Of a stretch of DNA of 64,000 nucleotides, positions 26,000 to 29,101 are shown piece after piece; position 1 is the stretch's first letter; every line of letters begins with the position of its first letter. The DNA comes from Phycisphaerales bacterium (lineage in GTDB: Bacteria; Planctomycetota; Phycisphaerae; WQYP01). Below the pieces are notes generated by a model. The model had not been told where the DNA came from, searched no databases, and saw only the letters and a program-made list of their open reading frames with translations. Location: positions 26,210 through 90,209 of the forward strand of contig DAIDJN010000029.1 in the NCBI GenBank assembly GCA_027451365.1, in the 5' to 3' direction. The position numbers were made by a program, and so were the translations under genes.

Positions 26000-26809
26000 A
26001 TGTATAAGAACGGAATTACCCACGGCTACGCGGCAATCGCCGGATTGGCCGCACTGGTCGGCCCATTGGCTCTTTGCGGAATAGCGCAAGCCGATTTTTC
26101 CCTGGTACTCATCGATACCGGTGCATCACAAACCGTTACCCTTAGCCAACATGCCGGCACGCTTACACCCAACAGTTCCGGCGGCGTGGTTGTCCCATTT
26201 TCGGTTGGCAGTTTTTCTGGTTATTTCACCGGCGATTTTAATTCTTCGCAGAGTGCCTTGGAAAGCGGCGGTTTAAATATCAGCAACGCGGCGGCCACCG
26301 GCACTTCGGACACCTTAAAAATCTTCTGGAGTGACAATAATCTTTCGGCATCCGGCCAGACCGGTGCGTCGGTCAGCATTTCCCAGAGCGGCGGCGGAAC
26401 CGTTGTGCAAAGTGCCGGTTCTATGAGCCTGGAAACCTATATTGACCCGTCCAACTCGGTCGGGTTGCCCGGTTCCGCTTCCTATGCCGGGCCGGCTTCC
26501 GCCTCCTTTAGCAACGCATCAAATTCCCCTGAGTCCTTTACTCTGTCGGGAAACCCAACTGCTTCACTGCCGCTGCAATCGGGATCGCCATTTGCAATCG
26601 GCCAGCTTTTTACGATTCAGCTTAGCGGTGGCGGTGCATTCGCCACCACAAATGGCCAGTTCGGTATGAACATTGCATCCACCGTTGGCAGCACCATCGT
26701 CACCACACCCGAACCTGCATCGCTTGTGTTTATCGCGATCGGGGGGCTTACTTTGCTGGTCCGGCGTCGCAAGGTTGCCGATAACGGAAGTTCGTCTGAA
26801 ATTAAATAA
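26000..26809 (+). CDS. PEP-CTERM sorting domain protein (Ser/Gly-rich)
   Basis: Signal peptide and C-terminal TPEPASLVFIAIGGLTLLVRRRK. SD GAGGAG. Confidence 0.88.
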   Translation: MYKNGITHGYAAIAGLAALVGPLALCGIAQADFSLVLIDTGASQTVTLSQHAGTLTPNSSGGVVVPFSVGSFSGYFTGDFNSSQSALESGGLNISNAAATGTSDTLKIFWSDNNLSASGQTGASVSISQSGGGTVVQSAGSMSLETYIDPSNSVGLPGSASYAGPASASFSNASNSPESFTLSGNPTASLPLQSGSPFAIGQLFTIQLSGGGAFATTNGQFGMNIASTVGSTIVTTPEPASLVFIAIGGLTLLVRRRKVADNGSSSEIK

Positions 26810-26859
26810 TGCGCGAACATGAATGAACATGTCAGCGATTTTCAAGAGAGAAGGCAAAA

Positions 26860-27609
26860 ATGAAAGCGAATATGAAATCAGTTATCTGTACAAAATCGGC
26901 TGTGCTCGCCGGATTGTTTCTCGCCGCCGCAGTTGGCGCGCATCAGGCGCGAGCTAGTGTGGCCCTGGAATTCAACGGCAGTTCGACGCCGATTACTTAT
27001 CTGCCGCACTTGGTTACATACAGTCAGGCGACGCCGACCCTGCTAGTGCCGGATTTCACCATCAGCAGCATTTCGGGAAGTTCCAACGCCGGTAAAGGTG
27101 CCTTGGTTTCACAGTTGACGGAAAGCACCTACAGCATCGTGAACACGGGCAGCCAGACAGGGACGCTTACCATTGCACTTAGCGATCTCGGCTTTTCCGG
27201 ATTTGGCGAGCTTGGTTTTGCGGAATCCGGAAGCGTTACCTTTTTAACAGGCCACTCCGGCGATTCAGTTGGATTGACTTCTTATTTAAATACCAACAAC
27301 CAGCAATTTGGAACGGCGAACGCGCTGTCCGCTTCCACGGTTTATTTTCCCGCTGGCGGAGCGGCCAACATCACCTATCAAATAGGTCCGGCATCAGAAT
27401 TGGTTGATCTGGGAAACAGTTCCGCCTTCGCCTTAAACTCTGTCGTGGCGTTGAATCTTGCGGCCGGGTCCAGTGTGAACCTGTCATTTCAGACCACGGC
27501 AGAGCCGGCTGCAATGCCGGCACCCTCCACGGTCGGCTTGTGTGGCATTGGCCTCATTGGACTGGGCATTTCGGTCCTTAGAAAACGCTCGCGAACGATC
27601 GCGGCATAA
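26860..27609 (+). CDS. PEP-CTERM-like protein (MPAP variant)
   Basis: Signal peptide and C-terminal MPAPST + TM helix + RKRSR. Composition resembles the upstream gene. Confidence 0.8.
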   Translation: MKANMKSVICTKSAVLAGLFLAAAVGAHQARASVALEFNGSSTPITYLPHLVTYSQATPTLLVPDFTISSISGSSNAGKGALVSQLTESTYSIVNTGSQTGTLTIALSDLGFSGFGELGFAESGSVTFLTGHSGDSVGLTSYLNTNNQQFGTANALSASTVYFPAGGAANITYQIGPASELVDLGNSSAFALNSVVALNLAAGSSVNLSFQTTAEPAAMPAPSTVGLCGIGLIGLGISVLRKRSRTIAA

Positions 27610-27754: not shown

Positions 27755-27796
27755 AAAAAAAAAGAAAAGCCCATCGACGTATGCGACAGGCTTTTC
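27755..27796 (-). terminator. Intrinsic terminator downstream of the Lys-rich microprotein
   Basis: The minus strand reads GAAAAGCC...GGCTTTTC followed by T9. Confidence 0.75.
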
Positions 27797-27953
27797 CATT
27801 CTTGTTTCCGCCGATGACCGGCTGCGGCATGAAATTGCAACAAACACAATTCCGTACGGTTGCCGTAAAGCTTGGTATTCGGCGCCACGACGCGGCATGT
27901 CCAGGCAAATTCAAACCTGGACCGGCGCGCCGGATCCCAAAAAATCATTGCGT

Positions 27954-28049
27954 TCAACGCTTCTTTGCTGATTTCTTGGTGCTTTTCTTCGCGGATTTCT
28001 TCGTGCTCTTGGCACTCTTGGATCCGGAAGCTTTCTTCTTCGTGGCCAT
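27954..28049 (-). CDS. 31-aa lysine/serine-rich histone-like microprotein (MATKKKASGSKSAKSTKKSAKKSTKKSAKKR)
   Basis: Translated by hand; it is absent from the ORF track. Perfect SD AAGGAGGTGAT just before the ATG, KKS(A/T) repeats, and a downstream terminator. Confidence 0.8.
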   Translation of the reverse strand: MATKKKASGSKSAKSTKKSAKKSTKKSAKKR

Positions 28050-28088
28050 GTTATCACCTCCTTTCATGGAAGTAAGACCGTAATTCTT

Positions 28089-28115
28089 TTATCGGCAACA
28101 GGTTGGCAGCCTCAA
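28089..28115 (-). promoter_or_regulatory. Putative sigma28 (FliA-type) promoter TTGAG-N14-GCCGATAA
   Basis: Exact sigma28 -10 consensus GCCGATAA 40 nt upstream of the microprotein ATG. The -35 match is only partial. Confidence 0.5.
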
Positions 28116-28168
28116 CATAAAAATTTGAATTTTTTCAAAAGTTTTTTCGACAAACGTCCGACACCCGC

Positions 28169-29101
28169 CTACTCGCGTGATCTCGCTGTCATCAGTGCGC
28201 GATTCAAAAGTATTTTTCTTAGCGGTTCAGAGGTGGCACACACTATCCATGGAACGCCATGCAATCGCGCCGCACCTTGCGACTGCGCAATCCATTTGGC
28301 GATATTTTTACGGTATTGCGCTGCCGCTTCAGGGCCTGCGGCGACAGGACGCCTCCGGCCGGTCTCTGAATCGATTAATTCCGACGCTGGCGCGTCGATG
28401 GGATACAGTTCCTGCGGAGATAGCACTTGCAGCACCGCCATCCGTCGATGCATTGTCGCCGACAACGGCACTATGTTCGCCATGTCGGCGGGGGGGAGAA
28501 AATCGCTTATGAACAAAAGCAGTCCGTGAGATGGAATCGTTGCCATGATCCGCCGAATTGATGATTCTGATGATTGTCTGGCGTTCGCACTTGTGTGGCG
28601 CAACCATTGAATAAGGCCAGCCGCCGCCTGCGGGCGGTCAAATTTGCGCATTGCGATATCGTCGGATGCACTACCGGCGTTTTGCGCTACCGCCAGTCGA
28701 CCTCCGTGCCGCAAAGCCGCCAGGCTGAATACCAGCGCCAGGTCGCGCGCCATTCTGAATTTGTTCGGTTGACCGAAGTTCATGCTCGCCGAGGTATCAA
28801 GAAAAATCGTCAATGGCAGCGATTTGCGATCATGAAACAGCCGTACCACAAGCTGGTCCAGCCGGGCAAGCGCATATTGATCTATAAATCGAAAGTCATC
28901 GCCTTGCGAATAAGCGCGAAAATCCGCTATCTCCAAGCCTGAGCTTTGCAGACCAGCCAGCCGCCCTCCTGCCGGCCAACGCATCGCCATTCCCCCGCCC
29001 GCCAGTTGGAACTGCTTTGCCAGTGCAAATACTTCCTTACCGGGCCACTTTGGTTCCGCGGTTTCCCCGGCTGCGTTCACTTCGCCTTTCATCGGGTTCA
29101 T
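28169..29101 (-). CDS. DUF58 / vWA-like protein
   Basis: GLEIADFRAYSQGDDFRFID, LDTSASM (MIDAS-like) and ISDFL motifs. Confidence 0.85.
   Translation of the reverse strand: MNPMKGEVNAAGETAEPKWPGKEVFALAKQFQLAGGGMAMRWPAGGRLAGLQSSGLEIADFRAYSQGDDFRFIDQYALARLDQLVVRLFHDRKSLPLTIFLDTSASMNFGQPNKFRMARDLALVFSLAALRHGGRLAVAQNAGSASDDIAMRKFDRPQAAAGLIQWLRHTSANARQSSESSIRRIMATIPSHGLLLFISDFLPPADMANIVPLSATMHRRMAVLQVLSPQELYPIDAPASELIDSETGRRRPVAAGPEAAAQYRKNIAKWIAQSQGAARLHGVPWIVCATSEPLRKILLNRALMTARSRE

Follow-up and report, generated by a model that had tools for sequence, protein, structure and literature searches.

A conserved stand-alone micro-gene in a planctomycete encodes a lysine-rich, candidate DNA-binding peptide behind a sigma28-type promoter

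Lysine-rich tails are known in eukaryotic histone H1, HU/HupB and AlgP, and several short basic ribosomal proteins (bS22/Sra, bTHX and eL41) are Arg-rich and of fixed length. The chlamydial polycation Hc2 (HctB) has 165-237 aa and is reported to consist of pentamers with two basic residues arranged in 36-aa higher-order repeats, together with a C-terminal domain; it condenses DNA, also binds RNA, more strongly than Hc1, and represses translation (PMC2848022). In the account of the chlamydial regulon given in PMC12282069, sigma28 binds hctB and tsp only, late in development, with hctB verified by ChIP. BpH1 of Bordetella is described as expressed in exponential phase and dispensable. For planctomycetes, tomography of Gemmata left open which protein lies behind nucleoid condensation and allowed that condensing proteins may remain unannotated (PMC3440768).

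Here, we analysed a 64,000-nt stretch of DNA from a Phycisphaerales bacterium (hereafter the window), in which an earlier note had proposed an unannotated, monocistronic-looking unit encoding a 31-aa histone-like peptide. The unit and its upstream neighbour comprise the following features:

28169..29101, minus strand: DUF58 gene (Pfam PF01882), the upstream neighbour, given as context and lying outside the micro-gene unit
28089..28117, minus strand: sigma28-type promoter, with the -35 element TGTTG at 28117-28113, a 16-nt spacer and the -10 element GCCGATAA at 28096-28089
about 28081, minus strand: predicted transcription start, placed by analogy with the numbering of P. aeruginosa fliC, -15 to -8 (PMC12784957)
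28053..28065, minus strand: Shine-Dalgarno (SD) sequence of 13 nt, GAAAGGAGGTGAT, complementary to the 3' end of the genome's own 16S rRNA
27954..28049, minus strand: micro-gene ORF, encoding a 31-aa Lys/Ser/Ala/Thr peptide with KK(S/T)(A/T) repeats
27798..27953, minus strand: structured 3' UTR, about 155 nt long and with little sequence conservation
27755..27797, minus strand: intrinsic terminator with a 14-pair stem and a U-tract, located by a terminator scan

Translation of the ORF (28049-27954) yielded MATKKKASGSKSAKSTKKSAKKSTKKSAKKR and confirmed the 13 Lys, the single Arg and the lack of acidic residues reported earlier; the peptide further contains 7 Ser, 5 Ala and 3 Thr, has a computed mass of 3.3 kDa and a charge of about +13.5, lacks aromatic residues and gives no tryptic fragment longer than 5 residues. 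At 96 nt, the ORF lies near the cut-offs of gene callers, Prodigal having a minimum ORF length of about 90 nt. An in-frame ATG farther upstream would give a 37-aa version; this start was dropped because it overlaps the SD and was seen in the same genus only. The genes downstream are convergent with the micro-gene. On that side of the window, positions 26000-27609 on the plus strand carry, in tandem, two genes for secreted proteins whose C-termini weakly resemble PEP-CTERM, an arrangement also present in a same-genus genome.

The peptide resembles Hc2 in its Lys/Ala/Thr repeats, in carrying two basic residues per 4-5 positions, in changing length by repeat number and in lying behind what appears to be a sigma28-type promoter in a bacterium that lacks flagellin. 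It differs in size, with 31 aa here and 15-37 aa in the family against 165-237 aa, and many homologues have sigma70-type promoters. The PF07382 (HC2) profile, with a cut-off of 40 bits, matched neither the 31-mer nor six other homologues and reached 16 bits (E 0.014), under the cut-off, with a 102-aa homologue; because of the low complexity of these sequences, homology to Hc2 cannot be demonstrated. BpH1 and the H1-like proteins of Burkholderia (NCBIfam NF038053) are likewise stand-alone Lys/Ala repeat proteins that vary in size, but they have about 180-200 aa, and only the 102-aa homologue scores against their profile (E 0.71). With the tails of H1, HupB and AlgP the peptide shares the character of a disordered K/A/S/T/P polycation, including SPKK, a histone H1 motif, in some homologues; here, in contrast, there is no globular or HU domain, and the whole protein is the tail. 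The short ribosomal proteins bS22/Sra, bTHX and eL41 are similar in being basic, 20-35 aa long, led by a strong SD and often missed by annotation, whereas the micro-gene product varies from 13 to 111 aa and has no family or PDB match. By analogy, the peptide is likely a minimal variant of Hc2/H1-tail-like polycations.

Protein databases added little to this comparison. The 31-mer matched no Pfam or NCBIfam profile, an exact-sequence look-up of ten homologues in a collection of 15 billion proteins found none (0/10), and a family profile run against the PDB gave a best solved chain at E 8.3. A protein homology search with a 42-aa homologue returned 1022 candidates, of which none reached E<=10, a result that follows from low complexity and says nothing on the absence of relatives. 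In the ESM Atlas, the nearest clusters were hypothetical proteins of 36-40 aa at 0.92-0.93, with a recognition score too low to be reliable; a cluster bearing HC2, at 0.84, serves as a lead only. In the literature, we found no description of such micro-genes, coverage of subscription journals and supplements being incomplete.

DNA-level searches were more informative. A DNA search matched 14 of 36 same-family genomes and none of 24 from other families, and in all 14 we observed an SD, an ATG, a Lys-rich ORF of 24-34 aa and a downstream hairpin. A sequence-only DNA model found matches in 40 of 45 family genomes, against 13 of 45 for a less sensitive protein HMM, and inspection of matches that included the SD region identified a stand-alone homologue of 15-37 aa at 36 of 37 same-family loci. 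The count of this model at the level of the phylum (118/146 genomes) was set aside as unspecific, since 16 of the 29 top loci lacked the start of an SD-led Lys-rich ORF. The DUF58 gene adjoined the micro-gene at 9/9 family loci tested, a neighbour kept in part of the family. Across nine pairs of sequences, which share genomes and are not independent, 10 non-synonymous changes at 609 sites stood against 32 synonymous changes at 162 sites, giving a pN/pS of 0.08 (pN 0.016) compared with 0.36 for the adjacent DUF58 gene; synonymous divergence was also lower, with a pS of 0.20 vs 0.43. These ratios indicate that the peptide is under protein-level purifying selection.

Beyond the family, homologues, whose absence the earlier note had named as a refutation, were found across the class. 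A strict pattern of an SD followed by KKxxKK occurred in 49 of 401 genomes and a looser one in 79 of 301 class genomes, each with a reversed control of 0; the looser-pattern matches listed show an ATG, which the pattern does not demand. Several class families, among them f14 (0/21), f12 (0/15) and f21 (0/14), gave no pattern match. Scanning all species genomes, we obtained at least 120 loci, at which SD conservation is by choice, the SD being part of the search pattern. Of the 120 loci listed, 104 gave a Lys-rich ORF by script; among the remaining 16, 14 carried the same ORF behind TTG, ATT, ATC or ATA, one was a domain fusion and one was false. ORF lengths among the loci listed had a median of 24 aa and a range of 13-94 aa (111 ORFs, a few of them fusions and one an HU gene). 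About 31 of the 80 titled records among these loci were labelled as planctomycetes and about 21 as Nitrospirota, the remainder including Methylomirabilota, Omnitrophota, Patescibacteria, Zixibacteria, Acidobacteriota and Proteobacteria. The class of peptide is thus not restricted to the PVC lineage, in which the earlier note had placed it, similar micro-genes occurring in many other phyla; owing to low-complexity sequence, homology past the class cannot be demonstrated.

Across 148 distinct peptides, residues were 54.5% Lys, 22% Ala, 10% Thr, 3% Ser and 2.6% Arg, only 5 contained any Asp or Glu, SPKK was present in four, and the spacing from one KK to the next was 4 or 5 in 563 of 719 cases; family peptides are nearly free of aromatic and large hydrophobic residues. 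Considering this Lys-rich composition, the KK every 4-5 residues and the free change in length, the peptide is most likely a disordered polycation.

Gene neighbourhoods within the class showed a further regularity. At 29 of 64 class loci, two others having been dropped for short flanks, a ParA-family ATPase gene in the same orientation starts at most 1.1 kb downstream; Pfam AAA_31 confirms this neighbour for 12, and the adjacency is kept across at least four families. This synteny within the class supports common descent. In the present genome, the only strong match to a ParA-family ATPase lies on another contig (C81). Separately, a lone parB occurs at L298:1899-2864(+) on contig C54, with no parA seen adjacent; it is preceded by a 9-nt SD and, at a distance of 56 nt, by a GCCGATAA box. 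Neighbours in other clades include lpxC, lysA, DUF58 or gpmI, one distant copy (L078) precedes HU, and the present genome carries two HU/IHF genes.

The claim of a perfect SD was borne out beyond chance expectation. The sequence GAAAGGAGGTGA has two copies in the 4.06-Mb genome, one in the micro-gene SD and the other in the 16S gene, as the complement of its 3' end; among 2856 genes predicted with a simple gene caller, the best SD match was 10 nt, against 13 nt at the micro-gene, and no stronger SD than that of the micro-gene was found in the genome. Folding predicted that this SD is partly paired in a 5' hairpin; relatives show A-to-G variation in it, which would still allow a G-U pair. In other planctomycete copies, the SD is weaker.

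At the other end of the unit, we located the proposed terminator at 27797-27755. A scan over 3 kb found 4 sites vs 4.7 in shuffles, so that the terminator alone is unconvincing; terminator-like hairpins lay 3' of 76 of 100 distant homologues vs 15 in shuffles. The whole predicted transcript folds at a z-score of -6.8 vs shuffles, and an Rfam search gave three matches at E 0.26-0.54, far under gathering scores and at chance level. In family f6 (L036-L056), the 3' UTR contains GGCTCC at 21/21 loci, twice or more at 16, and GCCACGGC at 21/21, usually in the terminator loop; these motifs are possibly a conserved RNA element or a protein-binding site.

Four metatranscriptome runs of one study each contained one contig of a close relative's micro-gene, running from 27789 or 27824 to 28062-28105 and covering the ORF. 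The runs were chosen via this stretch, and the contigs carry no strand, end or level information and could derive from DNA; with this reservation, the unit is spanned by an RNA-library contig in a close relative, where the earlier note had named a missing transcript as a refutation. Compared with the window, the relative's contigs have 19-21 listed substitutions and an 11-nt gap; all of these fall within the 3' UTR, and no listed difference touches the ORF. Over 19.9 kb, the micro-gene was the only piece with a full-length fit among the matches listed in all four runs, and missing RNA cover on the flanking genes cannot rank expression. Two of the four contigs extend upstream of the predicted start, by 11 and 24 nt, suggesting read-through, another promoter or DNA. 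Since the arrangement is conserved in relatives, chance can be excluded for the unit as a whole, and the comparisons of homologues and of substitution patterns support the view of a complete unit: the micro-gene is, on this comparative evidence, a real, conserved, stand-alone gene.

The sigma28-type promoter was retained in one part and revised in another. The -10 box GCCGATAA has 305 copies in the genome vs 292 expected under an order-6 Markov model and is therefore unconvincing alone; it is commoner between genes (59 vs 32 per Mb) and ranks 11 of 750 octamers of the same composition, as judged with a simple gene caller. The pattern TnWTG-N15/16-G(C/T)CGATAA was present at 24 of 25 micro-gene loci from genera without flagellin and at 0 of 11 from flagellated genera, with 0 on the reverse strand and 0 in shuffles; this strict pattern was drawn from the same loci that it scored, and the split corresponds roughly to one clade division, not to independent events. 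The two boxes lie 39-51 nt before the start codon, or about 210 nt in genus g2. The box GCCGATAA thus stood. The proposed -35 element TTGAG at 28115-28111, 14 nt before it, did not, the last two bases not being conserved, and TGTTG with a 16-nt spacer takes its place. The canonical sigma28 geometry is given as TAAAG-N14 (PMC12784957), and the spacing at the micro-gene is 2 nt longer. Reading the box as a sigma70 element (TTG...GATAAT) is less likely, since conservation covers GCC/GTC but leaves out the final T.

Elsewhere, micro-genes are preceded by other promoters. TTGAC-type sigma70 promoters were found at 11/11 loci of flagellated genera, and sigma70-type promoters at 26/29 loci of other families. 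The -35 consensus is TnWTG in the family and TnAAG in other families, both 16 nt from the -10 box; with a loose pattern, TnAAG at this spacing occurred at 6/29 and 13/30 loci of other families (partly overlapping sets), often beside a sigma70 promoter, and the loose two-box pattern at 0/41 micro-genes of other phyla. Within this genome, TnAAG/TnWTG-N16-G(A/C/T)CGATAA marked 10 of 131 intergenic vs 1 of 342 coding boxes, an enrichment with p values of 0.0004 and 0.02 for the two -35 forms that are uncorrected for the 18 combinations tried and include the micro-gene site. The distribution indicates that sigma28-type control is lineage-specific, not general, with the two-box promoter in genera without flagellin and sigma70-type promoters in flagellated genera.

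A factor that could read this promoter is present. The earlier note had treated the absence of a FliA-type sigma factor as a refutation; profile searches identified a single FliA/WhiG factor over the cut-off in this genome, a stand-alone gene at L001:1471-2265(-) on contig C17 (TIGR02479, 245.7 bits, cut-off 189.6), and found no flagellin, FlgM or FliD in the genome, which is 93% complete. Of the 45 family genomes, 43 encode FliA and 12 encode flagellin. The best FliA gene comes after flhF and flhG in three flagellated relatives; in this genome, as in two further genera lacking flagellin, it is a stand-alone gene, with 71-73% identity to the flagellar copies. Among the flagellin genes of flagellated relatives, 0/20 had GCCGATAA within 450 nt upstream and 4/20 had TCCGATAA at about 390-450 nt, so that FliA's motif preference here is unconfirmed by flagellin genes. 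The arrangement is reminiscent of the Chlamydia FliA/WhiG regulon without flagella in its GCCGATAA -10 box, small apparent regulon and stand-alone sigma gene, and differs in its -35 element (TnAAG/TnWTG at 16 nt vs TAAAG at 14 nt) and in that no FlgM was found. We consider it quite probable that FliA controls the micro-gene copy in this genome. The stand-alone factor, together with about 10 candidate TnAAG/TnWTG-N16 promoters genome-wide, offers a testable non-flagellar sigma28 regulon; in Planctopirus, fliA is assumed to be cell-cycle regulated (PMC11958385).

As to function, we lean, with somewhat better than even confidence, towards a free histone-H1-tail/Hc2-like polycation that would bind nucleoid DNA unspecifically and help its compaction; DNA binding is inferred from the composition and from the parA synteny (29/64 loci). 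In the proposed sequence of events, FliA retained after loss of the flagellum would direct RNA polymerase to start near 28081, the 13-nt SD would open the 5' hairpin and give high translation, and the disordered peptide would neutralise and bridge phosphate backbones, the spacing of charges counting rather than the exact sequence or length. The peptide could be inactivated by phosphorylation of Ser/Thr or by acetylation of Lys. A 4-Mb chromosome carries 8 million phosphates, and neutralising one tenth of them takes, by arithmetic, about 60,000 copies; a role in bulk compaction would thus place the peptide among the most abundant proteins. Several points temper the DNA role: the composition fits any polyanion; gene order, and with it parA adjacency, can be inherited, and in this genome the ParA-family gene lies on a different contig; the 31-mer matches no protein-family profile; two HU/IHF genes are also present; and the H1-like BpH1 is dispensable in Bordetella.

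The first of these points bears on an alternative that we regard as possible but unlikely, namely that the peptide acts mainly on RNA or ribosomes as a small basic ribosome-associated or translation-dampening factor. Its size, very strong SD and stand-alone unit would suit a highly expressed ribosome-type gene, as would the low synonymous divergence relative to DUF58 (pS 0.20 vs 0.43), and Hc2 itself represses translation (PMC2848022). However, a length of 13 to 111 aa set by repeat number is unlike the fit to a fixed rRNA pocket, Arg makes up only 2.6% of residues, no solved chain scored better than E 8.3, ribosomal operons are not among the neighbours, and a 26-aa Arg-rich ORF on contig C60 presumably stands closer to bS22. 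Less probable still is a general encoded counter-ion with no link to the chromosome, whether a polyamine substitute, a polyphosphate binder, a stress chaperone or a lysine store. Conservation of only charge and spacing is what this reading predicts, and similar ORFs with unrelated neighbours in unrelated phyla may reflect convergence; yet the within-genus constraint on amino acids (pN 0.016) goes beyond the needs of a store, and parA adjacency recurs across at least four families.

We think it improbable that the function is centred on the RNA or on the process of translating it, with the transcript, by virtue of its maximal SD, sensing ribosomes or acting as a sponge for 30S subunits, or with the ORF serving as a lysine-sensing attenuator leader. 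The unusually long SD and its predicted pairing in a hairpin, the TTG, ATT, ATC or ATA starts behind the SD in distant homologues, the constraint on synonymous sites, the 3' UTR motifs of family f6 and the lysA gene downstream in one clade all speak for it; against these stand the pN/pS of 0.08, which signals selection on the peptide, and Rfam matches at chance level only. The lysine-attenuator form was dropped, as the convergent downstream gene here leaves nothing to attenuate, and in the lysA clade that gene has its own sigma70-like promoter after a strong terminator, with no antiterminator in the folds. That the ORF is an untranslated, low-complexity A-rich stretch, as the absence of its homologues from the protein collection (0/10) might suggest, is very improbable, with frame, start, SD, composition and synonymous-biased change kept over the class.

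Returning to the polycation that would compact nucleoid DNA, this locus contributes a sigma28-type promoter that is conserved and accompanied by a stand-alone FliA, the promoter split between flagellated and non-flagellated genera, the parA synteny, the selection data and the RNA cover. The 31-mer is a concrete candidate for a nucleoid condenser missed by standard methods (gene calling and tryptic proteomics); it is cheap to synthesise, and a 20-aa homologue (L121) occurs in a relative that has been cultured. A bolder extension, which we hold to be doubtful, would make a protamine-like microprotein the planctomycete nucleoid-condensing factor and an ex-flagellar sigma factor its cell-stage switch, the two forming a sigma28-polycation module that parallels chlamydial sigma28-hctB within a cross-phylum class of H1-tail peptides.

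Several further observations were made among the loci. Downstream of the micro-gene and in the same orientation, one clade (L060, L083, L091, L112, L119 and L128) has lysA, whose product catalyses the final step in making lysine; the gene was identified by NCBIfam for four loci and by similar N-termini for two. A maximal SD precedes a TTG, ATT, ATC or ATA start at L061, L068, L069, L071, L075, L113, L141, L145, L148, L151, L156, L160, L165 and L173. Tandem micro-gene copies, each with a maximal SD, occur at L099, L102, L110, L114 and L142, and a Lys-rich N-terminus is fused to a short cysteine-rich domain at L110, L130 and L245. Two other small ORFs with an SD lie in the same genome as the micro-gene: a 26-aa Arg/Lys/His ORF at L299:334-411(+) on contig C60, which we take to resemble bS22, and a 23-aa Lys-rich ORF at L300:408-340(-) on contig C56.
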